Origin: Clostridia bacterium
Lineage (GTDB): Bacteria > Bacillota > Clostridia > Christensenellales > Aristaeellaceae
Direction: 5' to 3'
Assembly (NCBI GenBank): GCA_024404275.1
Contig: JAKSQG010000023.1
Coordinates: 1-16,538 of the forward strand
Length of the DNA: 16,538 nucleotides
Position numbers and translations under genes: made by a program. The notes below the pieces were generated by a model. That model did not search any database. It was not told where the DNA came from and was given only the letters and a program-made list of their open reading frames with translations. Shown piece by piece: positions 1 through 16,538 of the stretch (positions are counted from its first letter, which is position 1; each line of letters opens with the position of its first letter).

Positions 1-642
1 GCTCGCCCCGTGACGCTGTCCTTCATGCCGGGACAGGGCTATTCGTACTCGGGCGAGGGGTATTATTACCTTCAGCGCACCATCGAGCACCTTACCGGAA
101 AAACACTTCAGCAGCTGTATGAGCAGTTCATTTTTGAGCCTGCCGGCATGCATCACAGCGCCGTACAATGGCGGGATGAGCTGCGTACGTGCTTTGCTTC
201 CCGGCACGACGAGTCCGGTGTCCTCATGCCCTTCCGCGAGCATCCCGACAACAAAGGCGTCGCGCCATAGCCCAACGCCGCATGGAGCCTGTACACCACC
301 GCATCGGATTACGCCGCCTTCCTGCGCTACTTCCTGCATCAAAAAGGCGGTCTGACCGATCCAACCTTTTCCCTGCTGACCTCGCCGCAAAGCAAGGCGG
401 ATAAAACCGTCTGCTGGGGCATGGGCTTTGGCATGATCGCCCCCGAGCCGGGTCTTCTGTGGCACTGGGGCGACAACAAGGGCTACAAAAATATGATGGC
501 CGCCGATATCGTCTCCGGCTGTGCCATCGTGCTGCTCTCCAACAGCGATGGCGGTCTTGAAGCGGAAATGAACATCCTGCGCCGTCTGACCGACTGCACG
601 CATTGGAATGCCGTTGAAAGCTTTATCCAAACTGCCGAATAA
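1..642 (+). CDS. Serine hydrolase / beta-lactamase-family protein, C-terminal part (5' end lies outside the window), read through an in-frame TAG at 268-270
   Basis: Frame 1 is open from base 1. It carries a YSYSGEGYYYL (YxN-like) motif and a later HWGDNKGY (KTG/HxG-like) motif. ORFs 10..270 and 421..642 share one frame, and the stretch between them translates without stops as PNAAWSLYTTASDYAAFLRYFLHQKGGLTDPTFSLLTSPQSKADKTVCWG, typical of this fold. Final stop is TAA at 640-642. Confidence 0.75.
268..270 (+). other. In-frame TAG inside the serine hydrolase CDS (putative sense/recoded codon)
   Basis: Context is gcg cca TAG ccc aac. Family-like sequence continues in the same frame on both sides. 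Confidence 0.7.
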
Positions 643-647
643 AACGC

Positions 648-677
648 TTGTTCATGTATACTTTCCTATTGTATAAT
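648..677 (+). promoter_or_regulatory. Putative sigma-A promoter for the acyltransferase gene
   Basis: TTGTTC (648-653), an 18-nt spacer, then TATAAT (672-677). The RBS AAAGGAGAAAG and the ATG at 703 follow downstream. Confidence 0.4.
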
Positions 678-702
678 ATCATTGAATGAAAGGAGAAAGT
701 GC

Positions 703-2730
703 ATGAGCAAGCGTTCTGTACGCACCATCGTTACCGCCAACGGGCTGGGCAGCATTTATATGTTTATGTTTTCCATGCTGCTCTCCGGTTTTTTGCTGAA
801 AGCGCCGCTGATTGGAGGCGCCCTGGCCATGTGCGGCCATTGCGGCACGATCTTTATGGCTTCCTCTGTCAGCCGTGTGCATCTGCTGAGCAAAAAACAG
901 ACGCGCTTCCAGCAGGTCATTTATCTTCTGCTGCTCGTCATCAATCTGGCGCTGCTGTTCCTATATCCCATGGATGTCCCACGGATCAACGTCTGGATCC
1001 TGTTTTTTGTGCTGCTGTCTCTCACCTTCAGCGGCGGTGCCGCCCGGCAAATGCTGCGCCGCGGCCCGGTACAAAAAGCTCTGCGCCTTCATTTTATTCT
1101 GCAGATCGTCCTTGCCGTATCCGGATCCGCATTGCTGCTCTTCTGGTTCCCGCGCTATCTCTATCTGACCGGCGGCTACTTGCTCGCCTTCGTTCTGCAA
1201 TTGTATGAGTGCTCCGGTCCGCGCAACAGCATCCCGGCTGAAACGCCCGACCTGTCCGATGCGCACAGTGCTTTTCTCAAGGGCAATGTCTTCCGCCTGT
1301 ATGAGACCGCCAGCGTACTCATCACCATGGCCTGTTACATCTCCATCATTCTGGTCTATTGCTCGCTGGCGCTGACAGCGGAAGGTCTCTTCATCTCCAT
1401 GGCCATCGCCTTTGTCACCAACATTCTGTTTGCCGAGGCTGCCGATTATCTGCTCCGCGTGCAGGACAAGCGCAAAGCCATCAAGCCCGACACCGTCATC
1501 ATCTTCAGCCTGCTTTTGTGGCTATGCGGTCTGGTCATGTACAGCCGCTATATCCTGCGCTATGAGCCCAATCTGCTGGCCGTATACTTCGGCATGGGCA
1601 TGTGTTCTGCCGGCATCGCCGTCAGTGTCCGCTGCCTGTCGCAGATGGACCGTGTGGTTCGTCAGGCCGTGCTGCTCAACGCCGAGGCTGCCGCGCCGCA
1701 GTACAGCACGCTGAGCTTCTTTAGAAATGAGACCGCCGCCGCACTCAGTGAAATGGCCGCGCTCATCGTCATCACGCTGCTGTTCACCTTCAATCACGGC
1801 GCTTATTTCCAGCAGCTCTCCGTAGACCGACTGCAGCCCTTCCTGCTGCTGCCGGCGGTACTGCTGCTCATTGCCGCGCTGCTGACCATGCTGCGCTATC
1901 CCGCCACCAATTATTACGCACAAAAGTTAGCGCGTCTGCTGGGACTGCGTGCCTCGGGAAAAGTCAACGATGCCCTCACCCGTCAGGTGGAAAGCATCTT
2001 TGTCGAAGAACGCAAGCGTCCCCTTGGCACCAACATTCTCAAATTCCTGTTCCGTCCCTTCTGCCGTCATAAGCTTTCGGGCACCGAAAACATCCACGAG
2101 GACCCGGATAATCCGTTGGTATTCCTGTGCAACCATGCCTCGGTCTACGGTCCTTTGACCGCCGTGCTGAACATCCCCCAACCCGTTCGTCCCTGGGTCG
2201 TCAGCAACATCGTGGGCACCCCGCAATAGTTTGCCGATTATTTCCTCGAAAACACACTCGGCCCCGCCAAGCATTATCCCGAGCGCCTGAAGCCCGCCAC
2301 CGCGCTGTTTTTGGGCAAGCTCAGCGTATGGTGCATGCATCAGCTTGATTCCATCCCCGTCTACCGCGAAAAGCCCTCGCAGCTGCGTCAGACCTTCCGT
2401 CTTTCCTCCGACGCGCTGGAAAGCGGTGACAACCTGCTCATCTTCCCATAGGATCCCTCCGCGGAGTCTGACGGAGGTTATGTCCTGGAGGGCGTCGGTC
2501 ACCTCTATGAGGGCTTCACCCTGCTGGCGACAGTCTATTACAAGCGCACCGGCAAGTGCTGCCGCTTCCTGCCGATGTTTGCCCACAAGGAAAGCAAGAC
2601 CATCACCTTCGGGCAGGAAATCCGCTACGACCCCTCCCATCCCGACATCGAGGAACGCGAACGCATCTGCCGCGAAGCGGAACAGCAGATGCATGACCTG
2701 TACGAGCGTGCCTGTCGGAAGCATCCATAA
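703..2730 (+). CDS. Fusion protein of about 675 codons: N-terminal polytopic (MFS-like?) membrane domain plus C-terminal divergent PlsC/LPLAT-type acyltransferase domain, read through two in-frame TAGs
   Basis: ATG at 703 follows the RBS AAAGGAG. About 440 aa of repeated hydrophobic segments come first. The acyltransferase blocks are FLCNHASVYGP (an HX4D-like block, but with G where D is expected), SIPVYREK, and LLIFP-[TAG]-DPS at the motif III (FPEG-like) position. The frame stays open and protein-like from 2230 to the TAA at 2728-2730 apart from the TAGs at 2227 and 2449. Confidence 0.75.
2227..2229 (+). other. In-frame TAG number 1 in the acyltransferase CDS (putative sense codon)
   Basis: Context is ccg caa TAG ttt gcc, giving ...VGTPQ-X-FADYFLENTL... 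in the same frame as the ATG at 703. Confidence 0.7.
2449..2451 (+). other. In-frame TAG number 2 in the acyltransferase CDS, at the conserved Glu position of the FPEG-like motif
   Basis: Context is ttc cca TAG gat ccc, giving LLIFP-X-DPSAESDGGY. It is in frame with the start at 703 and the TAA at 2728. Confidence 0.7.
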
Positions 2731-2740
2731 ATCAGCATCA

Positions 2741-2772
2741 AAAAAGCGTCTTCCCTGCGGAAGACGCTTTTT
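2741..2772. terminator. Bidirectional rho-independent terminator between convergent genes
   Basis: AAAAAGCGTCTTCC, loop CTGC, GGAAGACGCTTTTT forms a perfect 14-bp stem with A/T runs on both sides. It sits between the TAA at 2730 (+) and the TAA at 2781 (-). Confidence 0.75.
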
Positions 2773-2780
2773 GATTGTCC

Positions 2781-3638
2781 TTACTTCACGGCGATGGTGC
2801 CGCTCGCAATGCTCTGCGTTCCTTTGCTGTTGACGGTTTTGCCTTCCGCCTCCACATTGATCTGTCCCCCGGTGATGGACAGGTCGGTAGCAGACTGAAT
2901 GCCGTCATCGCCGCTCACAATGGTGATACTGCCGCCGGCAATATACACATAGCCCTTGCCGGCTTTGTTATCCGTATCGGCCTTGATGCCGTCGCCCGCA
3001 GCGTTCAGCACGAGTGTACCATCCTTGATGGACACGGAATCATTGCCCTTCAGGGCATTCTTGGCGGCCACCACGGTGATATTGCCGGAAACAATGTGCA
3101 AATCGTTCTTGGTGCCGATACCGTTGCCCATGTTGCCGTTGACGGTCAGAATGCCGTTGCCGTTGATGCACAAATCATCCTTGGCATAGATGCAGGCATT
3201 GGGCTGCTTGTCCAGTGCCAACGTATACGCAGCGGCGTCCGTCAGCGTGTTGACAGAGCCGTCCGCCAGTGTGATCTTGCACTTATCGGCAGAAACGATA
3301 TAGATGGGGGCGCTGTCAGCGCAGGTGAGTGTCAGACCGTTCAGCACCAGATGCACCTTGGCGTTTTTGTCGACCTCCACCTGAACGCGGCCGTTAGCGC
3401 ATTCGCCGCTGAGCACATAAGTGCCCGCCGCATTGATATACACGGTGGTGCCATCCACAGCAGCGCCGCTGCCATTGACCAGTACGCCATTTTCAGAGAA
3501 GGTAACGGTCACCGCTTCGGTCCAGGAAGCGTCCAGATCATACTTGGTGAAGACATCGGAATAATCCGCCGCCATCGCGGAAGCCAGCATCATAGAAGCC
3601 AGCACAATGCTCAGCAGCAGGCTCATCAGTTTTTTCAT
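2781..3638 (-). CDS. Secreted beta-helix protein, probably a Cthe_2159-like carbohydrate-binding domain protein
   Basis: RBS AAAGGAG lies 7 nt before the ATG. The signal peptide MKKLMSLLLSIVLASMMLASAMA/AD precedes Gly/Asn/Asp-rich repeats (INGNGILTVNGN, ITVVAAKNALKGN, ITIVSGDDGIQS). The family assignment is from memory. Confidence 0.75.
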   Translation of the reverse strand: MKKLMSLLLSIVLASMMLASAMAADYSDVFTKYDLDASWTEAVTVTFSENGVLVNGSGAAVDGTTVYINAAGTYVLSGECANGRVQVEVDKNAKVHLVLNGLTLTCADSAPIYIVSADKCKITLADGSVNTLTDAAAYTLALDKQPNACIYAKDDLCINGNGILTVNGNMGNGIGTKNDLHIVSGNITVVAAKNALKGNDSVSIKDGTLVLNAAGDGIKADTDNKAGKGYVYIAGGSITIVSGDDGIQSATDLSITGGQINVEAEGKTVNSKGTQSIASGTIAVK

Positions 3639-3673
3639 GGAATGATCTCCTTTCGGTTTTCGGGAACATCTTT

Positions 3674-3702
3674 AGTGTACCATACCAATTATTGAAAAAC
3701 AA
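3674..3702 (-). promoter_or_regulatory. Possible promoter for the beta-helix gene
   Basis: On the minus strand: TTGTTT (3697-3702), a 17-nt spacer, then TGgTACACT, an extended -10 with its hexamer at 3674-3679. Confidence 0.35.
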
Positions 3703-3729
3703 CCGGAATTGCATGAACGGTGTGTGAAT

Positions 3730-5076
3730 TTACACCTTCGGTGGGGCGATATAGCCATACTTGTCGCGCAGCCGCACCCAGAAATATACCGTGACCGCCA
3801 GCGACAGCAGTTCTGAAAAGAAAACGGAAAGCCATACACCGTCCAACTGCCAGAATAGCGGCAGCAGCAGCACCATCCCCGCTTGAAACAGCAGCGTACG
3901 CACAAAGGAGATGCCCGCCGACACCGCGCCGTTGTTGAGTGCGGTAAAGAAAGCCGAGCCATAAATGTTGAACCCGCACAGCAGGAACGCCAGGCTGTAC
4001 AGCCGAAAGGCGTGCTCGGTCATGGCCAGCAGCTCGGCATCATAGCTGACATACAGCAGTGCCAGCGGTCGGGACAGACCGATGGCGATCGCCGTCATGC
4101 CGATTGCCGCCAAACCGATCAGGTGCAGGCTTTTGGCAAAAATATTCTGCAATTCTCTGCGATTCTGCGCCCCGTGGTTGAAGCTGACAATGGGTGCCGT
4201 GCCCATTGAATAGCCGATATAGACCGATATAAAGATGAAATTGACGTACATGATGACGCCGAACGCTGCCACCCCTGCTTCCCCTGCCAACCGCATCAGT
4301 TGAAAATTGAAAAGCATATTGACCACCGACAGGGAAATATTGGTCATAAACTCACTGACGCCGTTCGAGCATGTTTTCCAAAGCGCCGAAAGATCAAGCC
4401 AGGCGCTTCCCAGATGCAGGCGGCTGCGGTTTGGCAACGCGAAGTAGACAAGCGGAATGATGCCGCCTACCATCTGACTGATCGCAGTCGCCCAGGCGGC
4501 CCCCGTAACCCCCAAGCGCAGCATGCCCACCAGCACAGCATCGCCAACCATATTGGTCACGCCCGCGGCGATGGTCAGGTACAATCCCAGCTGCGGTCTC
4601 TCTGCTGCTACCAGAAAGCTTTGGAACAGATTCTGCAGCATGAAGGGGACAAGCGCCATCATGATGATGCGCCCGTAGTCCACACAGTAGGGCAGCATTT
4701 CCTCCGTCGCACCCAGCAGCAATGCCACATCCCTGAGCCATATTTCGCCGATGACAGTCAGAATCAGGCCCATGATGATGATAAAATACACCAGCATGCT
4801 GAAGATGCGGTTGGCCTCCCGCGGCTTATTTTCGCCAAACCGCATCGATACCAATGCCGTACCGCCCGTACCCACCATAAAGCCGATGGAGGAGAAAATC
4901 ATCAGGAAAGGCATGATCAGGTTGATGGCCGCAAAAGGCGTTTTCCCTGTCCAGTTGGACACAAAAAAGCCATCCACCACGCCGTAAATGGAGGTAAACA
5001 CCATCATGCCCACAGACGGCATCACAAACCGAAGCAGCTTTTTATAATCAAAATGATCCGACAGGGCAATGTTCAT
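3730..5076 (-). CDS. MATE-family multidrug/toxin efflux transporter
   Basis: 448 aa and about 12 hydrophobic segments. The N-terminus (KKLLRFVMPSVGMMVFTSIYGVVDGFFVSNWTG) is typical of MATE proteins. ATG at 5076 follows the RBS GGAGGAG. The upstream extension to 5166 lies inside the GNAT gene. Stop is TAA. Confidence 0.88.
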   Translation of the reverse strand: MNIALSDHFDYKKLLRFVMPSVGMMVFTSIYGVVDGFFVSNWTGKTPFAAINLIMPFLMIFSSIGFMVGTGGTALVSMRFGENKPREANRIFSMLVYFIIIMGLILTVIGEIWLRDVALLLGATEEMLPYCVDYGRIIMMALVPFMLQNLFQSFLVAAERPQLGLYLTIAAGVTNMVGDAVLVGMLRLGVTGAAWATAISQMVGGIIPLVYFALPNRSRLHLGSAWLDLSALWKTCSNGVSEFMTNISLSVVNMLFNFQLMRLAGEAGVAAFGVIMYVNFIFISVYIGYSMGTAPIVSFNHGAQNRRELQNIFAKSLHLIGLAAIGMTAIAIGLSRPLALLYVSYDAELLAMTEHAFRLYSLAFLLCGFNIYGSAFFTALNNGAVSAGISFVRTLLFQAGMVLLLPLFWQLDGVWLSVFFSELLSLAVTVYFWVRLRDKYGYIAPPKV

Positions 5077-5089
5077 ATCGCTCCTCCGT

Positions 5090-5716
5090 TCAGAAACGCC
5101 TAATGAAGCTCCAGCTGCCAAATCCCCGCCCGTTGTGCTCAAAGCGTCGCTCGTCAAACACCTCAAAACCGTTTTTCAGGTAAAAGCGGCGGTTGGGTTC
5201 GGAATTGGTAAACAGGCTCACCGCCTCGGCACCGTGCTCACGGGCATAGGGCAGCAGCCCCTCCTGCACAAAGCGGCTGCCGATACCCTTCCCTTCCTCG
5301 GATGAAGCCACGGTCAGCAGGCTCAGGTACCATGTATTGCCGTGAAGCGCATGACAGGGCGCAGACGCCTGCGGCTCCATGGCATTCCAGGCATTGACAT
5401 CCTTGCTGCCGCCGCGGCGAAGGACACCGAGCCAGCCTGCGCACACATACGCCCAGTCCCCGGGCTTCTTGAAATCGGGTGCGCAAAGCTGTCCGACCGC
5501 CACGATATGTCCGTTTTCTTTGGCGGTGATAAAATGAACGGTGGGCAAGCTCTTATTGGCCTTGAATTCACAGCGCAGCAGCGCATCCAGAAAACGGTGA
5601 CGCCGCTCGTCTTCCGTCACATATGCCGCAAAATACTCATAATCATAAAAAGCCCGGGCCGCCAGAGCAGCGCACTCCTTCCACTCGGAGGGCTTCATTT
5701 TTTCAAATGTCAGCAT
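5090..5716 (-). CDS. GNAT-family N-acetyltransferase
   Basis: 208 aa. ATG at 5716 follows the RBS AAGGAG. An acetyl-CoA binding-like block (EEGKGIGSRF) and a C-terminal NRRFYLKNGFEV are present. Stop is TGA at 5090-5092, 13 nt before the MATE start. Confidence 0.82.
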   Translation of the reverse strand: MLTFEKMKPSEWKECAALAARAFYDYEYFAAYVTEDERRHRFLDALLRCEFKANKSLPTVHFITAKENGHIVAVGQLCAPDFKKPGDWAYVCAGWLGVLRRGGSKDVNAWNAMEPQASAPCHALHGNTWYLSLLTVASSEEGKGIGSRFVQEGLLPYAREHGAEAVSLFTNSEPNRRFYLKNGFEVFDERRFEHNGRGFGSWSFIRRF

Positions 5717-5740
5717 TTCAAAACTCCTTTTGAATATATG

Positions 5741-5774
5741 AAAAAAGACGCTTGCTTTCGCAACCGTCTTTTTA
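5741..5774 (-). terminator. Terminator of the tRNA operon
   Basis: Minus strand reads AAAAGACGGTTGC-GAAA-GCAAGCGTCTTTTTT: a stem with one mismatch followed by a T6 run, immediately 3' of tRNA-Cys. Confidence 0.55.
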
Positions 5775-5775
5775 C

Positions 5776-5850
5776 TGGAGGCGCAGTCCGGATTCGGACC
5801 GGAGCATAAAGGTTTTGCAGACCTTCGCCTTACCACTTGGCTACTGCGCC
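5776..5850 (-). tRNA. tRNA-Cys (GCA), CCA encoded
   Basis: Hand-folded: acceptor GGCGCAG/CTGCGCC, anticodon arm AAGGT-CTGCAAA-ACCTT, T arm TCCGG-TCCGAAT-CCGGA. The T loop has C where the near-universal U55 is expected. Confidence 0.9.
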
Positions 5851-5858
5851 GAAAAAAA

Positions 5859-5934
5859 TGGAGCGGTAGACGAGGCTCGGACTCGCGACCTCAACCTTGG
5901 CAAGGTTGCGCTCTACCAACTGAGCTACTACCGC
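5859..5934 (-). tRNA. tRNA-Gly (GCC), CCA encoded
   Basis: Acceptor GCGGTAG/CTACCGC, anticodon arm CAACC-TTGCCAA-GGTTG, T arm GCGAG-TCCGAGC-CTCGT. The T loop again has C at the U55 position. Confidence 0.9.
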
Positions 5935-5939
5935 ACACA

Positions 5940-6015
5940 TGGTGCCTTGGGGCGGAATCGAACCACCGACACGCAAATTTTCAGTCTGCTGCTCTACCTA
6001 CTGAGCTACCAAGGC
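5940..6015 (-). tRNA. tRNA-Phe (GAA), CCA encoded
   Basis: Acceptor GCCTTGG/CCAAGGC, anticodon arm GCAGA-CTGAAAA-TTTGC, canonical T loop TTCGATT. Confidence 0.92.
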
Positions 6016-6020
6016 ATATA

Positions 6021-6097
6021 TGGCGACCCGAATGGGGCTCGAACCCATGACCTCCAGCGTGACAGGCTGGCGTTCTAACCAACTGAACTACCGGGCC
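6021..6097 (-). tRNA. tRNA-Asp (GTC), CCA encoded
   Basis: Acceptor GGCCCGG/TCGGGTC with two G-U pairs, anticodon arm CCAGC-CTGTCAC-GCTGG, T loop TTCGAGC. Confidence 0.9.
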
Positions 6098-6105
6098 ACA
6101 ATTTG

Positions 6106-6181
6106 TGGTGGGAACAACAGGGCTCGAACCTGTGACCCTTTGCTTGTAAGGCAAATGCTCTCCCAGCTGAGCTATGCTCCC
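6106..6181 (-). tRNA. tRNA-Val (TAC), CCA encoded
   Basis: Acceptor GGGAGCA/TGTTCCC, anticodon arm TTTGC-CTTACAA-GCAAA, T loop TTCGAGC. Confidence 0.9.
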
Positions 6182-6205
6182 GTGGCGTCTTGCAACGCGT
6201 ATATA

Positions 6206-6234
6206 ATGATACCTTATCCAAGTGCATTTGTCAA
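6206..6234 (-). promoter_or_regulatory. Promoter of the tRNA operon
   Basis: Minus strand: TTGACA (6229-6234), a 17-nt spacer, then TATCAT (6206-6211), about 25 nt upstream of the tRNA-Val 5' end. Confidence 0.6.
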
Positions 6235-6301
6235 GCGTTTTTTCGTTCGTTTTTAAAAAAAGTTTGTTCGTATCATCTTTGTCCTTGAAACGGATTCGCA
6301 A

Positions 6302-6337
6302 ACAAAAATGCAGGGCCCCCCGAAGGGAGCCCTGCAA
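6302..6337 (-). terminator. Rho-independent terminator of the ABC transporter operon
   Basis: Minus strand: TGCAGGGCTCCC-TTCG-GGGGGCCCTGCA followed by TTTTTG, starting 12 nt after the binding-protein TAA. Confidence 0.75.
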
Positions 6338-6348
6338 GGTGCATCGAA

Positions 6349-7371
6349 TTACTTGGTGGTAACGGCGGTGTACAGGGTGTTCCAGTGATCCAGGATCTGA
6401 GCCTTGTTTTCGGTCAGGAACTTGACATCGCGGGTAACCCACTTGATGTCTTCGGTAGCGGGCAGATAGGACTCGGCACCGTACTCGGTGTTCTTGTTGG
6501 TCATACGCAGGGTCTGCAGGCCGGCGGCGATGGTGGTAGAACCTTCCTTGGAGCAGATCCAGTCGATCATGGCCTTGGCGGCGGCTTCGTGCTTGGCGCC
6601 CTTGATCACGGCAGCACCGAAAGCGGAAGCGGAGGAGCCTTCAGCGGGATAGATCATGGCCACGTTGGTAGCGCCCTGCTGCAGCAGCTTGGACACGCCA
6701 TCTTCGTAGGTCAGACCAACCACGTATTCGCCCTTCTGGACGGAGTTGAAGCAGGCAGAGGAGCTTTCGGTGATGACCAGGTTGGGCATCAGCTGCTCGA
6801 TGTAAGCCCAGGCTTCCTCGCTGTCATGTCCGTACACGGCCATGATGTTGCACAGGTTGTTCCAGGCAGAGGAGGAGGAGTTGGGGTTGGCCAGCAGGAT
6901 CTGACCCTTCAGGGCGGGAGTCAGCAGGTCAGCATAGCCCTTGATGTCCAGGCCCAGCTGAGCAGCCAGCTCGGTGTTGACGCAGAACACGACGGTGGAC
7001 AGATGGTCCATGGAGTAGAAGCCGTTGTCGCAGGCATAGCCTTCGATGGCTTCGGCGGAGTACTCAGACACCCAGTGCTCGAACAGATCAGAGTAGTTCA
7101 TGCCGTCGGAGTCGCACAGGCCGCCCCAAACCAGGTCGCCCTGGGGGTTGGCAGCTTCAGCGGCGATACGGCCAACGGTCTCACCGATCTTGCCGTACAC
7201 GGTCTCGACTTCGATGTCAGGATACACCTCGGCAAAGCCGTCCAGCATCACGTCCAGGTCGGTCTGAGTCATGGTGGTGTACAGGATCAGGGTATTGCCC
7301 AGATCTTCGGCGATGGCAGTGCAGCCAAGCGCCATCATGGCAACCAGAAGCAGCGCGAGGAACTTTTTCAT
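6349..7371 (-). CDS. ABC transporter substrate-binding protein (Fe3+/Fbp-like family 1 SBP), probable lipoprotein
   Basis: 340 aa. ATG at 7371 follows the RBS GGAAAGGAG. The signal sequence MKKFLALLLVAMMALGC has a lipobox-like ALGC. The sequence looks like a periplasmic-binding fold, and the gene lies downstream of the permease and ATPase. The substrate is not determinable from sequence. Confidence 0.8.
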   Translation of the reverse strand: MKKFLALLLVAMMALGCTAIAEDLGNTLILYTTMTQTDLDVMLDGFAEVYPDIEVETVYGKIGETVGRIAAEAANPQGDLVWGGLCDSDGMNYSDLFEHWVSEYSAEAIEGYACDNGFYSMDHLSTVVFCVNTELAAQLGLDIKGYADLLTPALKGQILLANPNSSSSAWNNLCNIMAVYGHDSEEAWAYIEQLMPNLVITESSSACFNSVQKGEYVVGLTYEDGVSKLLQQGATNVAMIYPAEGSSASAFGAAVIKGAKHEAAAKAMIDWICSKEGSTTIAAGLQTLRMTNKNTEYGAESYLPATEDIKWVTRDVKFLTENKAQILDHWNTLYTAVTTK

Positions 7372-7442
7372 AGGGGTAACTCTCCTTTCCTTAATAGGAA
7401 AATATTCCTTAATGCGGATGCTCTCCGCATAAAGTACAGGTT

Positions 7443-9104
7443 TTACATGCGGATGTCTTCGGACTTGCTGATGGCAAGGTAGGCAACCAGCACCAGGGTG
7501 GTGACCGCCGTCAGAATGGAGGCAAAGGCACACGCAGGGCCATAGCTGCCGTTGCTGATGGCGATGTAGGTGGACATGGTCAGGTTGATGGTCTTGTTGT
7601 TGTACAGCATGATGCTGCTGGACAGTTCGGTCACGATGGAGACCCAGCTCAGCACGGCGCCGGAAAGGATGCCGCTGGACATCATGGGCACCGTCACCTT
7701 GATGAAGGTCTTGAGTTTGGAACTGCCCAGGGATATGGCGGCTTCCTCTGTACTGATGGGGATCTGCATCAGCGTTGCGGTCGCCGATCGTATCGTATAG
7801 GGCATTCTTCGTATGACCATCGACAAGATCATGATCAGCATGGTGCCGGTCAGACCGAAGGGAGCGGGACCAAAGGACATGATGAGCGCGATACCGATGA
7901 CGGAACCGGGCATGATGTAGGGCAGCATCGACATGGTATCGATGGTGTTGTTCATCATGCTGCGGCGGCGCACCACCAGGTAGGCGATCAGAATGGCAAA
8001 GATAATGATAATGGCCAGAGCCGCAATGGACTGGTACAGCGTGTTGGTGATGGAGCGGCCCAGCAGCAAGCGCTTTTTGCTGATAATGGTCTCATAGTTG
8101 ACCAGCGAGAAGCCATCCTTGAACACCATGCCGTTCACGTTGCGGAAGGACAGGTAGATGATGTACACCTGAGGCAGGAAAGCGATGGCGCACAGACCGT
8201 AGCAGTACACATACATCAGCACACCGGCAATGCCCTTGGGCTTTTTCTTTTCAACGGGGTGCAGGCTGTTGATGGAGAACTTGTACTTGCCGGTCGCCCA
8301 CTTCTGGAAGAAGAACACCACGGCGGTGACCAGAATGGCGATGACGGAGATAGCAGCGGCAAAGTTGTGGTTGGTGCCGTTTTCACCCAGGTACTGGCTG
8401 TAGATCTCGACGGGGAAGGTACGATAGCCTTCACCGATCAAAAGGGGCGTACCGAAGTCGGCAATGGCACGCATGAAAACGATCAGCGCCGCCGCCAGAA
8501 TGGTGGGCATCGACAGGTTCATCACGATGCGGAAGAAACGCTTCACGCCTGTGCAGCCCATGTTGGCGGAAGCCTCCATCAAGCTGTTGTCGATGTTCTT
8601 GAAGGCACCGTTCATGTAGATGAACACCAGCGGGAACAGCTTCAGGCTCTGCACCAGCGTGATGCCGCCAAAACCGTAGATATTGCCGATATCGATGCCA
8701 AGGTAGTTTTTAAGGAACTGCGTGATCACGCCGGAGCGACCCAGCAGCATGATCCAGGAATAAGCGCCGATGAAGGGGGCGGACATACAGCACAGAATGC
8801 TGATGACAAACAGGAATTTGGCACCCTTCAGCCGGTAGAAGCTGTAGAAGTACGAGAAGGGAATACCGATCAGCAGTGTAACAAGCGTAACGACCAGCGT
8901 CACCTTGGCGCTGTTGGTAATGGTAATGGTGTAGTAGGGGTTGGAGAAGAATTTGGTAAACTGTGCCAGAGACAGTTCGCCCTGATCACTGTAGACCGAC
9001 TGGCGCAGAATGCCAAACAGCGGATAGATCAGGATCAGCAGGAACAGCAGAAGGAAGAAGACCGAAATGACCGACCAGACATCGCGTTTTTTTCTTTCCA
9101 TCAT
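7443..9104 (-). CDS. ABC transporter permease, fused double-domain type (FbpB/ThiP-like)
   Basis: 553 aa and about 12 TM segments in two homologous halves. The RBS GGAGG precedes ATGATG at 9104. Stop is TAA. Confidence 0.85.
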   Translation of the reverse strand: MMERKKRDVWSVISVFFLLLFLLILIYPLFGILRQSVYSDQGELSLAQFTKFFSNPYYTITITNSAKVTLVVTLVTLLIGIPFSYFYSFYRLKGAKFLFVISILCCMSAPFIGAYSWIMLLGRSGVITQFLKNYLGIDIGNIYGFGGITLVQSLKLFPLVFIYMNGAFKNIDNSLMEASANMGCTGVKRFFRIVMNLSMPTILAAALIVFMRAIADFGTPLLIGEGYRTFPVEIYSQYLGENGTNHNFAAAISVIAILVTAVVFFFQKWATGKYKFSINSLHPVEKKKPKGIAGVLMYVYCYGLCAIAFLPQVYIIYLSFRNVNGMVFKDGFSLVNYETIISKKRLLLGRSITNTLYQSIAALAIIIIFAILIAYLVVRRRSMMNNTIDTMSMLPYIMPGSVIGIALIMSFGPAPFGLTGTMLIMILSMVIRRMPYTIRSATATLMQIPISTEEAAISLGSSKLKTFIKVTVPMMSSGILSGAVLSWVSIVTELSSSIMLYNNKTINLTMSTYIAISNGSYGPACAFASILTAVTTLVLVAYLAISKSEDIRM

Positions 9105-9122
9105 TTACCTCCGCGCCGTCTG

Positions 9123-10238
9123 TCAGCGGATCAGGTCGTTGACAACGCCGGTCAGCAGGTTATCGGTGCCTTCGGCATTGAACAGGTTGACCTTGTCGGT
9201 ATTGATGTTGAGCGAGATCTCGGCGCCGGGGGTCAGGGTGTCCTCAATGGTGGACTCCTGAATGATCTACGCTTCCTCGCCGGTCTCCATGGTAACAAAG
9301 TAGTGGGTGTTGAGTCCGAGGAACACGGCGTCATCCACCTTGGCGCGGATCAGACCCGCGGAAGCGTCACGGCTGAGCAGCAGCTCTTCGGGACGCAGGG
9401 AGATAATCACATCCTGCTCCTTGGCGCATTCGGGGCGCACGTTATGGATGGCCACCTTGTTGCCGTTGGGCAGCACCACCATGGTCTGACCGTTTTCGAT
9501 GACCATCTTGCCCTGCATTTGGTTGGAGCGGCCGATAAAGTTGGCCACAAACAGGTTGGCGGGGCGCTGATAGAGGTTTTTGGGCGTGCCCACATGCTGA
9601 ATGACGCCGCCGTTCATAACGGCAATGCGGTCGGATACCGCCATGGCTTCTTCCTGATCGTGGGTAACATACACGGTGGTGATGCCGACATCGTGCTGGA
9701 TGTGCTTGATGACGGTACGCATCTCCACGCGCAGCTTGGCGTCCAGGTTGGAAAGAGGTTCATCCATCAGCAGCACCTGCGGCTCAATGCACAGGGCACG
9801 GGCGAGGGCGACACGCTGCTGCTGACCACCGGACAGGCGATCGGGCATGCGGTCGGCCAGACCGTCGATCTGCATCAGCTTCAGGAAGCGGTCCGCCTGC
9901 GTGTGGATCTGGCTTTTGGGCATATGCTTGTTGGTCAGACCGAATTCCACGTTCTTGCGCACGGAATAGTGCGGAAATACGGCATAATTCTGGAATACCA
10001 TACCAATGTTGCGGCGGGAAGGATCGAGATCGTTGATGCGGGTCTCGTTAAAATAAAAATCGCCGCCCTCGATGCTGTTAAAACCGGCAATCATGCGCAG
10101 CAGCGTGGTCTTGCCGCAGCCGGAAGGTCCGAGCAGTGTGAAGAATTCGCCCTCACGGATATCCAGGTTCAGATCGGGAATGATCACATTGCTGCCATAT
10201 TTTTTCAGCGCGTGCTGAATGCGGATATTGACGCTCAT
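9123..10238 (-). CDS. ABC transporter ATP-binding protein (PotA/FbpC-like) with C-terminal TOBE-like domain, read through an in-frame TAG
   Basis: ATG at 10238 follows the RBS AAGGAG. Walker A is GPSGCGKTT, the signature is LSGGQQQRVALARAL, and Walker B is LLMDEPLSNLD. After the TAG (9267-9269) the same frame reads IIQESTIEDTLTPGAEISLNINTDKVNLFNAEGTDNLLTGVVNDLIR and ends at TGA 9123-9125. This gives a normal length of about 371 codons and leaves an 18-nt gap before the permease start. Confidence 0.8.
9267..9269 (-). other. In-frame TAG in the ABC ATPase CDS (putative sense codon)
   Basis: Minus-strand context is gaa gcg TAG atc att, giving ...METGEEA-X-IIQEST... Confidence 0.7.
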
Positions 10239-10307
10239 AGCCGTATACTCCTTTTTTATGGACGTTTCACCGTGAAATGCTTTAAAATTGCGAACATGGA
10301 TGCTTAA

Positions 10308-10336
10308 ATAGTAGCATTCATTTACCATTTTGTCAA
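10308..10336 (-). promoter_or_regulatory. Promoter of the ABC transporter operon
   Basis: Minus strand: TTGACA (10331-10336), a 17-nt spacer, then TACTAT (10308-10313), about 65 nt upstream of the ATPase ATG. Confidence 0.55.
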
Positions 10337-10377
10337 TAACTACGCCCCAAAATATGTGGAGCCGTGGAAAACACCCC

Positions 10378-10407
10378 TTGAAGTATCAAACCGTTCACTG
10401 GTATAAT
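10378..10407 (+). promoter_or_regulatory. Promoter of the ansA-uvrA operon
   Basis: TTGAAG (10378-10383), an 18-nt spacer, then TGgTATAAT, an extended -10 with its hexamer at 10402-10407. The RBS AAAGGAG lies before the ATG at 10442. Confidence 0.6.
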
Positions 10408-10441
10408 AGACCGACCGGAAACGCCGGAAAAGGAGTCTGAA

Positions 10442-11473
10442 ATGACAAAAAAGATATTGCTGATCTACACCGGAGGCACCATCGGCATGACCGCCACCGC
10501 AAACGGCTACGCGCCGCAGAAGGAAGCGTTTCATCAGCTGCTCCACAGCATGCCGGGGCTCAATGCCGATGTAATGCCCGAATGGGATATTATCGATATG
10601 GACCCGCTGCTCGATTCCGCCAATATGACGGCGCACGAGTGGAACAAGATCGGCGGCATGATCGCCGACCATTACGAAGCCTATGACGGCTTTGTGGTGC
10701 TGCATGGCACCGATACCATGGCGTATACCGCCTCCGCCCTGTCCTTTATGCTGGAAAACTGCCGCAAGCCCGTTGTGCTGACAGGCGCGCAGATTCCCCT
10801 GTGCGAGGTGCGCAGCGATGCTCGCGACAACCTGCTCACCGCCATGCTGATCGCCGGCGAAGGCGTGGTCAAAGAGGTCTGCCTGTACTTCGGCGGCAGC
10901 CTGCTGCGCGGCAACCGCGCCACCAAATTCTCCTCCGATGGGCTCATCGCCTTCATCTCCCCCAACTATCCGCTGTTGGCGGAAGCCGGCATCAGCATCA
11001 AATACAACACTTCGGCACTGCTCAAGCCCCAGCGCGGTCCCTTCCGTCTGCGCCGCATGGACGATGTGCCCATCGGCGTACTCAAGATTTTCCCGGGCAT
11101 CCAGTTTGAGCTGTTTGAAGCCATCATGACTGAAAAACTGCGCGGCATCGTCATCGAGACGTTCGGCGCCGGCAACATTCCCGGCAGCGGCACGGCATTG
11201 CTGCCCATCATCCGCCGCGCCTACGCCAACGGCACCGTGCTGACCGTCTGCTCCCAGTGCCCGCAAGGCGCGGTCGCCCTCGGCGCGTATGAGACCAGCA
11301 CAGCGCTCAAAAACGCGGGTGCTGTCAGCGGCTATGACATCACCACCGAGGCGGCGGTGACCAAGCTCTACTATCTTTTCAGCTGCGGTTTTGATACCGA
11401 CAGCGTCAAGCATCTGATGGAAAGCAATCTGCGCGGGGAGATGACCCGCCGCGACGCTTCGGAGGAAAAATGA
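10442..11473 (+). CDS. ansA: L-asparaginase, type I (cytoplasmic)
   Basis: 343 aa. The catalytic motifs [11 protein letters not shown] and [10 protein letters not shown] are present. The TGA stop overlaps the uvrA ATG (ATGA). Confidence 0.88.
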
Positions 11474-14304
11474 ACGACTCCATTATCGTAAAAGGTGCCC
11501 GGCAGCACAACCTCAAAAACGTCTCCGTCACGCTGCCTCGCAACAAGCTGATCGTTTTCACCGGTCTGTCGGGCAGCGGCAAAAGCAGCCTTGCCTTTGA
11601 TACCATTTATGCCGAGGGACAGCGCCGCTATGTGGAAAGCATGTCCTCCTATGCCCGTCAGTTTCTGGGGCAGATGGACAAGCCCGAGGTCGACTCCATC
11701 GAGGGGCTTTCCCCCGCCATCTCCATCGATCAGAAAACAACTGCCCGCAACCCGCGTTCCACCGTGGGCACCGTGACCGAGATCCACGATTATTTAAGGC
11801 TTCTGTACGCCCGCACAGGCATTCCGCACTGCCCCACCTGCAGACGGTAGATCCGCCGTCAGAGCGTGGATGAAATCGTGGAGACCGTTCTTTCCTGGCC
11901 GCAGGGCTCAAGGCTTTTGCTGCTCTCCCCCGTGGTGCGTGCCCGTAAGGGTGAACACATCAAGCTGCTGGAGCAGGCGCTGAAGGACGGCTTCCTGCGT
12001 GTGCGCATCGACGGCGAAATGTACGAGCTGGATGATCCGCCCAAGCTGGACAAGCAGAAGAAGCACACCATCGAGATCGTGGTGGACCGCCTCATCCTGC
12101 GCCCCGATATCCGTCAGCGCCTGACCGACAGCATCGAAACTGCCATGAAGCAGAGCGGCGGTCTTGTCACCGTCATGCTGGCGGACGGCAGCATGGAAAC
12201 GCAGTTTTCCCAGAATTACGCCTGTCCCGAATGCGGCGTCAACATCGAAGAACTGACGCCCCGCATGTTTTCCTTCAACAATCCCTACGGCGCCTGCCCG
12301 CATTGCAGCGGTCTGGGCGTGATGATGAAGATCAGCGAGGACCTGTGCATCCCCGACCGCAGCCTGTCTCTGGCACAGGGAGCCGTCAGCTGCATGGGCT
12401 GGAGCAGCGGCAGCGAAAGCAGCATGGCCGCGGGCATGTTCCGCGGTCTGGCGGAGCGCTACGGCTTCAGCATGGATACGCCTGTGCGCGACCTGCCCCC
12501 CAAGGCGCTCGAGGTCATCCTGTACGGCACCAATGGCGAAAAGATCGATGTCAGCTACGATTCCATCCACGGTCACGGCGTGTACAAGACCGCCTTTGAG
12601 GGCGTCATTCCCTCCATGGAGCGCCGCTACCGTGAAACGCAGAGCGACAGCATGAAGGCGGTCTACGAAGAGTACATGACCACCATGCCCTGCCCCGAAT
12701 GTCACGGCATGCGCCTCAAAAAGGAAGCGCTCGCCGTCACGGTGGGCGGCAAAAACCTTGCCGAACTCAGCGATATGAACATCCGCAAGGCCCGTGATTT
12801 TCTGACCGCACTGGAGCTGGATGCCACCCGCACCATGATCGCGGGACCTATCCTCCGCGAGGTGGACAGCCGTCTGGGCTTCTTGTGCAACGTGGGTCTG
12901 GAATACCTGACGCTCTCCCGCGGCGCTGCCACCCTTTCGGGCGGTGAGGCGCAGCGCATCCGCCTTGCCACGCAGATCGGCAGCGGCCTCATGGGTGTAC
13001 TGTATATTTTGGATGAGCCCAGCATCGGTCTGCATCAGCGCGACAACGCCCGCCTGCTGGCCACCATGCAGCGGCTGCGTGATCTTGGCAATACGCTCAT
13101 CGTGGTCGAACACGATGAAGAGACTCTCCGTTCCGCCGATTATGTGGTGGATATCGGTCCGGGGGCGGGCATCCACGGCGGCAACATCGTCGCCGCAGGT
13201 ACGGTCGAGGAGATCATGAACACCCCCGGCTCCATCACCGGCGATTATCTGGCAGGACGCCGCGTCATCGCCGTACCCGAAACCCACCGCGTTCCCACCG
13301 GCTGGCTGACCGTCCGCGGTGCCCGCGAACACAACCTCAAAAACATCGATGCCGCCTTCCCGCTGGGCGTTTTCTGCTGCGTAACGGGCGTTTCCGGCAG
13401 CGGCAAGAGCAGTCTGGTCAATGCCATCGTGCACAAAACGCTGGCAAGGGATCTGAACCGTGCCCGTACTGTGCCCGGCGAATGCGACGGCATCGAGGGC
13501 ATGGACCGGCTGGATAAGATTATCTGCATCGATCAGAGCCCCATCGGGCGCAGCCCGCGCAGCAACCCCGCCACCTATACCGGCTTGTTCGATATCATCC
13601 GCAAGGTGTTTGCGCAAACGCCCGAAGCCAAGGTCCGCGGCTACAAGGAGAACCGCTTCTCCTTCAACGTCAAGGGCGGCCGCTGCGAAGCCTGCTCCGG
13701 CGATGGCGTGCTCAAGATCGAAATGCACTTCATGCCCGATCTGTATGTGCCCTGCGAGGTCTGCGGCGGCAAACGCTATAATTATGAAACGCTGCAGGTC
13801 AAATACCGCGGCTACAGCATCTCGGACATATTGGAAATGACCATCGAGGACGCCATGGGCGTGTTTGAAGCCTTCCCGCAGATCATGTCCCGTCTCAAAA
13901 CGCTCAGCGAGGTCGGTCTCGGGTACATCAAGCTCGGTCAGCCCGCCACCACCCTGTCGGGCGGCGAGGCGCAGCGTGTCAAGCTGGCGACCGAACTGAG
14001 CCGCCGCACCACGGGACGCACACTCATCCTGCTGGATGAGCCCACCACGGGACTTCACACCGATGACGTCAGCCGCCTCATCCACATTCTGCAGCGTCTG
14101 ACCGATGCGGGCAACACCGTGCTGGTCATTGAGCACAACCTGGATGTCATCAAAACCGCCGACTATGTGCTCGACCTCGGTCCCGAGGGCGGCGACAAGG
14201 GCGGTCAGATCGTCGCCGCGGGCACGCCCGAGCAGGTAGCGGCTGTCGAAGGCAGCTACACCGGTCAGTACCTCAAAAAGATCGGCATCACACCTCAGGC
14301 ATAA
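11470..14304 (+). CDS. uvrA: Excinuclease ABC subunit A, full length (944 codons), read through an in-frame TAG
   Basis: Two Walker A motifs ([20 protein letters not shown]), two signatures ([24 protein letters not shown]) and Zn-finger Cys clusters are present. ORFs 11470..11850 and 11866..14304 share one frame, and the junction ...[25 protein letters not shown]... is colinear with known UvrA proteins. Stop is TAA. Confidence 0.92.
11848..11850 (+). other. In-frame TAG in uvrA (putative sense codon)
   Basis: Context is aga cgg TAG atc cgc. The UvrA sequence is uninterrupted on both sides. Confidence 0.75.
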
Positions 14305-14345
14305 TGGTTTCATCAGAATAACCAACAACAGAAAGGGCAATCATC

Positions 14346-15179
14346 ATGAATTCCTTCAGTGAAGAACTGCTGTCCGCACGCAAAGCAAAAAACATGACGC
14401 AGGAGCAGCTGGCTGCTGCGCTCAACGTCACCCGTTCTACCGTGTCCCATTGGGAAAACGGCCGTAATGAGCCCGATCTGGAAACCCTTCAAAAGATCTC
14501 TTTGCTGCTGGAAACCACCTTTTCCGTGCAGGTAACCCCCGCTGCCGAGGCAGCGCCTGCCGCTGACCGTGAACAGCTGGTCAGGAAGAACAAGCTTCTC
14601 AAAATAATGGCCGCCATCATCGCTCTTTTGCTGATCGTGATCGTCGTCCTCATTGCCTGCGGTATCCTGCCGACCGGCAGCAAGCCCGTCAACGAGCCCG
14701 CCGCCTCTGCCGATGCCGCGCCGCTTGCCGTCACCCCCATCATGCCGCCCAAAGCCGAGACCATCGAATGGTACTCCTCCGCCTGTCTGCCGACGGAAGG
14801 CATGCCTTTTGTCATGATCCAGTTCAACGAAAACCCGCTCCGGGCTATCAACAACGCTGATTTGTTCCCCGATGGACCCGGCTGGTTCTACACCACCTAC
14901 CTGACCGAAACCAACGGCAAACCCTTTACGATCACCCACCTTCGTCTGGTGAATTTTATGGATATCAAAAATGATATCTTCGACTATGACGGTGACACCG
15001 TTTCCGGTTGGTTTGGCAGCAGCACCCTTCCCCCGCGCGAGCAATTTGCCTTCAACGGCGGCTTCCCCATGGTGCCCGAAATCAAGGGTATCGGCTTCTG
15101 CCTGACTGGCAGAGCCGAAGACGGTACCGAAATGGAATTCCATGCCTATCTCCCCCTGCTGCAGGAAGTAGCCGAATAA
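14346..15179 (+). CDS. Membrane-anchored XRE-family HTH protein (cytoplasmic HTH, one TM, about 170-aa extracytoplasmic domain)
   Basis: The N-terminus LLSARKAKNMTQEQLAAALNVTRSTVSHWENGRNEPDLETLQKISLLL is a classic HTH_3 sequence. The TM segment is IMAAIIALLLIVIVVLIACGIL. The C-terminal domain is unassigned. Stop is TAA. Confidence 0.8.
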   Translation: MNSFSEELLSARKAKNMTQEQLAAALNVTRSTVSHWENGRNEPDLETLQKISLLLETTFSVQVTPAAEAAPAADREQLVRKNKLLKIMAAIIALLLIVIVVLIACGILPTGSKPVNEPAASADAAPLAVTPIMPPKAETIEWYSSACLPTEGMPFVMIQFNENPLRAINNADLFPDGPGWFYTTYLTETNGKPFTITHLRLVNFMDIKNDIFDYDGDTVSGWFGSSTLPPREQFAFNGGFPMVPEIKGIGFCLTGRAEDGTEMEFHAYLPLLQEVAE

Positions 15180-15187
15180 ACCCCTTC

Positions 15188-15211
15188 AGACCCCTTAGGG
15201 GGTCTTTTTTT
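15188..15211 (+). terminator. Rho-independent terminator after the XRE-TM gene
   Basis: AGACCCC-TTAG-GGGGTCT followed by a T7 run, 9 nt after the stop codon. Confidence 0.8.
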
Positions 15212-15318
15212 GTGCATTTTTAACGTTGATACGTTTTGTATCGTCCAAAAAGGCATATGTTACGCATCGTAACTAGTGATGCCGCACCTCCGCCTTTATA
15301 ATGAAGAAGGAAATTCAC

Positions 15319-15645
15319 ATGAAAGAAGGGAGGGCCATGCTGTATCTCGGCTGGATCGCGGCGGCGTTCATGGCAGGCGTCATCGTTTCGCAGCGACGCC
15401 GCAATCATCGACCCGGGCTGCGTGAACGCAGCGAATCAACAGATTCCTTCGCGGGGCTGAAATATGACGAGGTCGCCGAGCACTTCGGCAGTTTGCCGTG
15501 CATGACCGTGCGGCGTGCAAACGGCACCGTGCTGCATCGGTGGCAGCAGGGCAGATATGCCATTGCGCTGCTGTTTGATTCCGCCTCCGTCTGCCTCGGC
15601 GTGGAAGAAGAAAAAACACAAACAAGAAAGGAACCCCATGTATGA
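15319..15645 (+). CDS. Small hypothetical membrane protein (start uncertain: 15319 or 15337)
   Basis: The RBS AAGGA lies 7 nt before the ATG at 15319, and a GGGAGGG lies just before the alternative ATG at 15337. The N-terminal TM is LYLGWIAAAFMAGVIV. The TGA stop overlaps the next ATG (ATGA). Confidence 0.55.
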   Translation: MKEGRAMLYLGWIAAAFMAGVIVSQRRRNHRPGLRERSESTDSFAGLKYDEVAEHFGSLPCMTVRRANGTVLHRWQQGRYAIALLFDSASVCLGVEEEKTQTRKEPHV

Positions 15646-16337
15646 ACTATGATCTGATTGACAAACTCAAATCCCTGTGGAGTAGGCGGCTGATTAAACC
15701 GCTTCAGCGGAACGGCGTGCCCTACAGCATCACGGAGCTGTTGCAAGAAACCGGACCGTTTGCACTTGCTTCCGGTCTTCTTCTGCTGCTTTCCTTCATT
15801 GCCATGCTGCGCAGCAAAAAGACGCACAGCGGCGCTTCCAGATGCTTCACCATCCTGTTTGGTCTGGGAGCGATCCTTTCCGCGGTCGTCTGGGGCATGT
15901 TCTGGTACTCCCTGAGCACAAAGGCATGGCTGGTCATCGGTATGGTCGCCCTTCTCGCGCTCATTTTTATGGTGATTTCCTGCAAAAAGAAGTCTGACAC
16001 CGACAAAAGCGAAAGCATCACCGCCGCTTCCGCCGCAGCTTCTTCCGCTGCTCATGCCGTCGGCGATACGCTGAAAGCAACCGCGGCTTCCGCAACCGCT
16101 GTCGCTAAATCGGGCATCTCTTCCTTTAAAGCCACCATGGAACAGGCGATCGCGGACAGCAACGTCGAGATCGCCGGTGTGATGGGCTATGAAAACGATG
16201 AAAGTGATGCCGCTGCCTTTGTACAGGATGATGAAGCCCTTGCTTCCATCAAGGCGCTGTTCGAACTCAAGCAGCAAAAGATCATCACCGAAGCCGAGTT
16301 TGAAGCAAAAAAAGTCGAACTGCTGAACCGCATCTGA
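15642..16337 (+). CDS. Membrane protein with C-terminal SHOCT-like domain
   Basis: 231 aa with about 3 TM segments, an Ala/Ser-rich linker and a C-terminus IKALFELKQQKIITEAEFEAKKVELLNRI that matches the SHOCT pattern. It is translationally coupled to the upstream ORF. Confidence 0.7.
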   Translation: MNYDLIDKLKSLWSRRLIKPLQRNGVPYSITELLQETGPFALASGLLLLLSFIAMLRSKKTHSGASRCFTILFGLGAILSAVVWGMFWYSLSTKAWLVIGMVALLALIFMVISCKKKSDTDKSESITAASAAASSAAHAVGDTLKATAASATAVAKSGISSFKATMEQAIADSNVEIAGVMGYENDESDAAAFVQDDEALASIKALFELKQQKIITEAEFEAKKVELLNRI

Positions 16338-16355
16338 TTGACAGGAGGACAAAAC

Positions 16356-16538
16356 ATGTTTGGTATTGTATTGATTTCGATCGTTGCAGCCCTGCTGACC
16401 GGTGCAGCCAAGTGGCGCATTTTTCAAAAGATGGGTTTTGAAGGCTGGAAAAGCCTCATTCCCTTCTACAATGACTATCTGATGTTCAAGGGCGTATACC
16501 ACAAACGGATGCTCTTTTTTTATTCATTTAACAGGTGA
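16356..16538 (+). CDS. Small membrane protein, DUF5684-like N-terminus (60 codons as read)
   Basis: The RBS AGGAGG lies 8 nt before the ATG at 16356. MFGIVLISIVAALLTGAAKWRIFQKMGFEGWKSLIPFYN resembles the KW-IF-K-G-GW--IP-N signature. The TGA falls at the last three bases of the window. Confidence 0.55.
   Translation: MFGIVLISIVAALLTGAAKWRIFQKMGFEGWKSLIPFYNDYLMFKGVYHKRMLFFYSFNR

Follow-up and report, generated by a model that had tools for sequence, protein, structure and literature searches.

Probable reading of UAG as glutamate in an uncultured genus of Clostridia

The uvrA gene on contig JAKSQG010000023.1 of the assembly GCA_024404275.1 (an uncultured gut Clostridia bacterium of the Christensenellales lineage), analyzed over its 16,538 nucleotides from positions 1 to 16,538 of the forward strand and hereafter called the window, raises a simple question: what does a TAG triplet mean when it stands in frame early in a gene that is otherwise complete? 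A preliminary description made from the sequence alone had placed such a TAG in uvrA, and this is confirmed, the triplet being codon 127 of 944, with the surrounding peptide as given there. The evidence set out below favors an answer in which UAG is read as Glu and no longer serves as a stop in this uncultured Clostridia genus, whose nearest named relatives are metagenome-assembled genomes (MAGs) of Christensenellales, and we place the probability of this answer at roughly 0.85. The TAG of uvrA would then be an ordinary Glu codon, and uvrA, an ABC-transporter ATPase gene, a beta-lactamase-family gene and a gene for a membrane protein would all be full-length and functional.

The translation of uvrA continues beyond the TAG for 817 further codons before reaching TAA and, when read through, displays both ABC ATPase modules and the Cys clusters of the Zn modules, in agreement with the preliminary description. 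Its N-terminal 311 residues match solved UvrA structures, and the TAG lies immediately after the first CxxC (C121/C124) of the N-terminal Zn module and ahead of the UvrB-binding domain (residues 131-240, covered by PDB 4dfc and 3fpn). At column 127 all 11 of the nearest full-length UvrA proteins (80-81% identity) carry Glu, as does PDB 9gxk, while among 82 homologues the column holds E in 52, P in 12 and V in 9; the earlier statement of E or P at this column thus fits, and the alignment of the TAG with Glu is borne out. Further, the same codon is TAG in JAZRWA010000076.1 of GCA_045599485.1 (L082, L085), an independent MAG of a sister species whose contig is syntenic with the window at 89.65% DNA identity over 15.7 kb. 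The uvrA genes of the two species share 96.7% protein identity at 89.7% DNA identity, and the ratio of nonsynonymous to synonymous substitution (dN/dS) between them is 0.026 for codons 1-126 and 0.036 for codons 128-944, at a synonymous divergence (dS) of 0.45-0.57. Such low ratios at a dS of about 0.5 indicate that uvrA has been kept functional, TAG included, since the species split. The impression that the gene is functional and expressed is therefore upheld, its translational coupling to ansA is visible in the overlap of the two genes (Table 1), and, where a split or decayed uvrA in close relatives might have been found, the opposite is the case.

Inspection of the remaining genes shows that uvrA does not stand alone. 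The window holds 13 genes with 5002 codons, in which five in-frame TAGs occur in four unrelated genes, amounting to about 2% of Glu codons, with neither an in-frame TAA or TGA nor a frameshift in any of the 13; the genes themselves end in TAA (8) or TGA (5) and never in TAG. The preliminary description had missed the four TAGs outside uvrA. In the beta-lactamase-family gene, the triplet aligns with the invariant E of the motif APEPNAAWSLY in 12/12 full-length homologues, and two independent Logan assemblies (P0133, P0151) each have a gene that, when called under code 11, ends exactly at this site. In the membrane protein, a weak PF01553 match ends at the residue encoded by codon 583. Read as Glu, the sites would yield the predicted peptides GVAP-E-PNAAWSLYTTASDYAAFLR, GVAPEPNAAWSLYTTASDYAAFLR (in the beta-lactamase-family protein) and ...ETGEEA-E-IIQESTIEDTLTPGAEISLNINTDK (in the ATPase). 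Since TAG occurs in 4/13 genes, stands at an invariant Glu and, as detailed below, swaps with GAG and GAA in both directions, its meaning appears to be a property of the genome and not of the uvrA site. Hence, those parts of the earlier account that concern the in-frame TAG, the Glu column and the functional gene stand, whereas its framing as a lone odd codon at a tolerant position does not.

Table 1. Positions of the features discussed and codons at the corresponding sites of two sister genomes
Feature	Position	Strand	Codon in window	Codon in JAZRWA010000076.1	Codon in L084	Remarks
In-frame TAG, beta-lactamase-family (PF00144) gene	268..270	+	TAG		TAG	Gene 1-642, cut at window start
Membrane / acyltransferase-like gene, 675 codons	703..2730	+				Two TAGs; weak acyltransferase match; stop TAA
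Membrane protein codon 509	2227..2229	+	TAG	GAA	GAG	In-frame TAG
Membrane protein codon 583	2449..2451	+	TAG	GAG	TAG	In-frame TAG, in LLIFP-X-DP
Membrane protein codon 596			GAG	TAG		
Membrane protein codon 639			GAA	TAG		
Cluster of five tRNA genes	5776-6181	-				Val-UAC, Asp-GUC, Phe-GAA, Gly-GCC, Cys-GCA; kept in sister genome; no Glu tRNA
ABC-transporter ATPase gene, 371 codons	9123..10238	-				Stop TGA
ABC ATPase codon 324	9267..9269	-	TAG	GAG		In-frame TAG, within TOBE_2 domain
Overlap ATGA of ansA stop and uvrA start	11470..11473	+				ansA stop TGA 11471-11473; GGAGGA upstream; translational coupling
uvrA, 944 codons	11470..14304	+				Intact once TAG is an amino acid; stop TAA at 14302-14304
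uvrA codon 127	11848..11850	+	TAG	TAG		In-frame TAG, 378 nt (126 codons) 3' of ATG at 11470, same frame

Further evidence comes from comparing these codons between genomes, for which a third source was a 10-kb Logan contig from SRR27361835 (L084). The differences between the window and its sisters go in both directions: alongside the window sites at which a sister has GAG or GAA, the membrane-protein gene of the sister genomes carries TAG at two other Glu codons, 596 and 639 (Table 1), and L084 contributes a TAG/GAA site in a peptidoglycan-binding protein as well as two sites in a PfkB gene that differ in opposite directions. The TAG of the beta-lactamase-family gene is kept in L084. A census of stop codons by open reading frames (ORFs) in the loci of 80 relatives was undiscriminating, stop-to-stop ORFs containing 5' extensions, and a homology-anchored codon comparison was used instead. 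In this comparison, every coding-strand TAG trinucleotide that differed in the other genome was collected for all orthologous gene pairs of the three genomes and sorted by its frame. All 14 differing in-frame TAGs have a Glu codon as the counterpart (GAG 10, GAA 4, others 0). In contrast, the trinucleotides at offset +1 are paired with TGG (15), TCG (1) and TGA (1), and those at offset +2 with CCG, CAG, TCG, CCA and CTG. At the level of sequence, TAG thus behaves across the sampled loci as a translated and heritable equivalent of a Glu codon.

These pairings bear directly on another explanation, namely that uvrA and the other genes are pseudogenes inactivated by nonsense mutation in a decaying genome. 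The public annotation is in line with it: the consecutive accessions MCQ2453470, 471 and 472 belong to a permease, ansA and an HTH gene, while the ATPase and uvrA are without a protein, so that both are apparently treated as pseudogenes. However, every in-frame stop is TAG and each corresponds to Glu, even though GAG makes up only about 17% (118/685) of the codons one step away from TAG, which makes random nonsense mutation an unlikely source. Further, the exchange runs from TAG to GAR as well as from GAR to TAG, frameshifts and in-frame TAA or TGA are absent, and the part of uvrA beyond the TAG evolves under the strong constraint noted above (dN/dS 0.036). Inactivation is accordingly contradicted by the data and extremely improbable.

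An artefact of sequencing, assembly or DNA modification, converting G to T at a subset of GAG sites, is a second explanation of this kind. All the TAGs are indeed a single G-to-T step away from GAG, and three of the five in the window adjoin or overlap GATC (TAGATC twice, TAGGATC once; at 11848-11856, at 9261-9269 on the minus strand and at 2449-2456), a coincidence that is probably due to chance. Nonetheless, the five sites lack a common sequence motif, and the G/T exchange is confined to position one of in-frame Glu codons, a restriction that excludes such an artefact, neither a sequencing error nor a DNA modification being able to respect the reading frame. Additionally, the same TAGs are present in two NCBI MAGs, in the Logan assemblies SRR17543909 and SRR27361835 and in ENA ERZ27247129, i.e., in assemblies of different samples produced by different pipelines, and uvrA codon 127 has kept its TAG across the 10% divergence of the two species. 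We therefore give an artefactual origin next to no credence. The assemblies with the pattern cover three species-level genomes of the genus. On the sister contigs, TAG-bearing genes further include those for PfkB, a peptidoglycan-binding protein, a response regulator, a DUF6273 protein and an ABC permease. A strain of the window species itself (L105, 97.5% identical) has additional TAGs in a DUF6273/TPR protein and an ABC permease. In a separate observation, this strain (L105, 1602-11150) remains 97.5% identical to the window up to position 15631, after which the two carry wholly different genes (window 15631-16538), marking a strain-variable boundary; beyond it L105 has the TPR/DUF6273 protein, a nitroreductase and a sugar ABC transporter, and the window has SHOCT and DUF5684 genes.

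Recoding of a stop codon by a local mRNA signal is established for UGA (selenocysteine) and is a proposal for certain UAG sites (pyrrolysine). A site-specific programmed readthrough of uvrA through a signal of the SECIS or PYLIS type (selenocysteine or pyrrolysine insertion sequence) would find its precedent there. In the 90 nt starting from each of the five TAGs, however, the predicted RNA structure is no better than that of shuffled sequences (z -0.22 to +0.77), and the contexts differ, the base after the TAG being C, T, G, A and A in turn. Moreover, the sites turn over between the sister species while their flanks are essentially unchanged. Folding at the level of shuffled sequence, together with this turnover in unchanged flanks, rules out a SECIS- or PYLIS-like signal, and there is hardly any likelihood left for programmed readthrough.

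The identity of the residue follows from alignment, and the possibility of another residue at UAG, such as pyrrolysine (Pyl), glutamine (as in code 15) or a new amino acid, has to be considered, the more so as UAG-to-Pyl and UAG-to-Gln are the sole precedents among prokaryotes and phages. The codon pairings speak against it, none of the 14 in-frame pairs involving CAG/CAA or AAG/AAA (for Lys, the closest analogue of Pyl) and all of them involving GAG/GAA. Similarly, TAG replaces an invariant motif Glu, and the genes that carry it are housekeeping genes and not methylamine methyltransferases. A residue other than Glu is thus very unlikely.

A search with the 126-residue N-terminal part of UvrA as a query recovered a second lineage with the same pattern, represented by five ENA assemblies (ERZ27234640-664; L097-L101) in which the contig reaches 93.7 kb. 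The UvrA of this lineage (e.g., L097:10001-12829) is 68% identical to that of the window and hence further removed than those of relatives that use the standard code. Under table 11, 25/36 gene calls of L097 end at TAG. When read through, 14 genes with 5454 codons contain 32 TAGs versus 279 GAA/GAG, i.e., about 10% of Glu codons; the stops are TGA (9) or TAA (5) and in no case TAG. The uvrA gene of this lineage has seven TAGs, with Glu as the majority residue at six of them, while a BcrAD/DUF2229 fusion protein has 14. Of the two IspF sites, the one in KATTT-X-RLGF corresponds to Glu of solved homologues, and the other is paired with E or P; in GlmM, the TAG in YML-X aligns with Glu. These comparisons suggest that the same code change has occurred in at least two distant Clostridia lineages, probably with independent origins. 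The nearest relatives with the standard code are genomes labeled 'Christensenellales bacterium' (L087-L090), in which uvrA is unsplit and UvrA is 80-81% identical to that of the window. In their loci, which have 61% G+C, TAA is the commonest stop and TAG ends only 1/34 genes; L089 has a genuine TAG stop at rsmE. The near-disuse of TAG seems to predate its reassignment.

The UvrA searches returned further observations that are recorded here in their own right. In an unrelated Clostridia species (L102-L104, P0276), the inspected contigs from JGI, ENA and Logan all stop one base past uvrA codon 126. The exact 126-aa product of P0276 is found on at least 24 contigs, the break coinciding with the spot of the TAG in the window. 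The fragments P0254 and P0278 extend one codon beyond P0276, and strain variation or an inserted element is possible as the cause of the recurrent break. These three fragments were considered as additional lineages with TAG at codon 127 and left uncounted, P0276 being cut by contig ends. The top match of the UvrA search, P0001 (JGI, 1548 aa), is 64% identical over the full query and has about 600 residues beyond the normal length, for which a fusion or an error in gene calling may be responsible.

The two lineages help to weigh an explanation that is closer to the favored one, in which UAG has a dual meaning: a Glu-inserting amber suppressor tRNA would act beside a retained RF1, a mixture of full-length and truncated products would result, and TAG could still end some genes. 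The rarity of TAG in the genus of the window, at about 2% of Glu codons, is compatible with this arrangement. On the sister contig, the frame stays open past the TAG in 9/9 of the gene calls that 'end' there. In one it does so for only seven codons and the case is ambiguous; this is a LytTR response regulator (JAZRWA010000076.1, L085:726-941) with a TAG seven codons before TGA, which may be either a sense codon or a residual terminator. On the other side, TAG is found in housekeeping genes and at invariant residues of catalytic motifs, the uvrA TAG has been kept over a dS of about 0.5, and no gene of the recoded loci clearly ends in TAG. Usage in L097, at 10% of Glu codons and with 14 copies in one gene, would be very costly under competing termination. 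Taken together, a dual meaning is unlikely.

Several observations weigh against a complete reassignment of UAG to Glu and temper its probability. The lack of TAG at gene ends (0/13 in the window and no clear case on the sister contig) carries little weight, as TAG ends so few genes even in the standard-code relatives. One of the seven uvrA TAGs of L097 falls on a variable column in which S is the commonest residue, and one TAG site in aspartokinase aligns with P in the single comparator. All of the sequences, moreover, are metagenome assemblies. Then there is the decoder: ARAGORN and Rfam give Cys, Gly, Phe, Asp and Val tRNAs in the window and none with a CUA anticodon, and no such tRNA is present in 94 loci totaling about 1.6 Mb. 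When JGI metagenomes were searched for an anticodon arm resembling that of tRNA-Glu but bearing CUA (GACRCCGCCYTCTAANGGCGG), four matches resulted, none of them a tRNA; the pattern was probably too strict, given that the tRNA-Glu(UUC) of a relative has a different anticodon stem (GACATCGCC). A looser pattern applied to viral contigs gave two matches, both of which are not tRNAs. With regard to the release factor, the gene tables of the sampled loci, which cover the genomes only in part, contain no gene with an RF-1/PCRF domain.

The favored reading, that UAG is a Glu codon, would nevertheless call for a specific machinery, in which we have lower confidence than in the meaning of the codon itself. 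The decoder would be a tRNA with the anticodon CUA charged with Glu by the glutamyl-tRNA synthetase. In the simplest scenario, it might have arisen from a spare, duplicated tRNA-Glu(CUC) by a single C36-to-A change, mirroring the GAG-to-TAG step in the codon. RF1 would have been lost, weakened or no longer compete at UAG, with termination at UAA and UGA left to RF2. As TAG hardly serves as a stop in the closest standard-code relatives, a route of codon capture may have been followed, whereby TAG became nearly unused first and was captured thereafter. Placing these genomes among the stop-to-sense reassignments rests on four features: TAG affects many genes, it stands for one amino acid, it is inherited in genomes assembled independently, and the genes are under purifying selection.

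According to PMC8629427 and PMC13462651, all known changes of stop codons in bacteria reassign UGA. They comprise UGA-to-Trp (table 4) and UGA-to-Gly (table 25), with hosts among Mycoplasmatales, insect endosymbionts, Absconditabacteria/Gracilibacteria and Eggerthellaceae MAGs, and the expected signature of such a reassignment is a tRNA with a mutated anticodon along with the loss of the matching release factor (PMC13462651, PMC8629427). Such recodings are recognized by in-frame stops at conserved residues of one amino acid and by gene ends that lack the codon. The present genomes resemble them in that the change would be from stop to sense and genome-wide and the in-frame stops lie at conserved residues of one amino acid. 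They differ in that UAG, Glu and RF1 are concerned in place of UGA and RF2, and in their G+C content of 56-60%, low G+C being usual in the UGA cases. Glu as the meaning of UAG is known only from eukaryotes, in the UAR-to-Glu nuclear codes of peritrich ciliates (table 30) and Blastocrithidia (table 31), which operate via tRNA-Glu with a mutated anticodon (PMC12153298). While UAG is read as Glu there as well, those codes are eukaryotic, depend on a single eRF1 and change UAA and UAG together, whereas here UAG alone is affected and UAA is the commonest stop. Bacteria, in which recognition of the stop codons is split between RF1 and RF2, can undergo a change restricted to UAG.

In gut crAss-like and Lak phages, code 15 assigns UAG to Gln via a suppressor tRNA (PMC9523058, PMC10879173). 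They share with the present case a UAG sense codon in a gut-associated genome. However, those are phage genomes in hosts of the standard code, UAG stands for Gln and the recoding often concerns late genes only; here, we are dealing with a bacterial chromosome on which five tRNA genes lie together with uvrA and transporters, UAG stands for Glu and there is no pairing with CAG/CAA. A genome-wide UAG-to-Pyl change in some archaea is attributed to Kivenson et al. 2025 by the gTranslate preprint, which also notes that this change barely lowers the coding density under table 11 and is hence easily missed. As in these archaea and in Pyl-using Firmicutes, UAG would rarely or never be a stop in the prokaryotes considered here. 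In contrast to Pyl decoding, which needs pylTSBCD and has sites that track no canonical residue, every comparable site here is Glu. Finally, work on recoded E. coli deleted for RF1 and on laboratory amber suppressors has established that UAG as a sense codon is tolerated once RF1 is gone and TAG stops are rare (PMC11903333); those strains are engineered, and the Clostridia case would be their natural counterpart.

No relevant report of a bacterial UAG reassignment, of a bacterial UAG-to-Glu code or of a tRNA-Glu(CUA) was found in the literature to mid-2026, of which most subscription-journal papers lay outside the coverage, such that a prior description is possible. With somewhat better than even confidence, we regard this as the first case of a natural bacterial code that gives UAG a canonical amino acid, namely Glu, as its meaning. 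Such a code would be present in at least two distant lineages of uncultured Clostridia, have probably arisen more than once, be represented by an early (about 2%) and an established (about 10% of Glu codons) stage, and have been hidden by annotation as pseudogenes and fragments.

If the reassignment is real, it has practical as well as biological consequences. Gene callers using table 11 fragment these genomes, and estimates of completeness, pseudogene counts and metabolic reconstructions of these MAGs are therefore wrong. The present translation-table predictors choose among tables 4, 11 and 25 only, and a 2026 preprint on prokaryotic translation tables covers these three along with Arg-codon cases and the archaeal UAG-to-Pyl code. 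A natural Glu-accepting tRNA(CUA) would be of interest to the engineering of the genetic code. With regard to how codes evolve, two natural stages of capture would be available for comparison, one with rare and the other with common use of the new codon. Sense use of UAG has so far been regarded as a matter of phages, archaea (as Pyl) and eukaryotes, and the genomes described here would mean that the RF1-specific codon can be captured in free-living or gut bacteria of ordinary G+C content.

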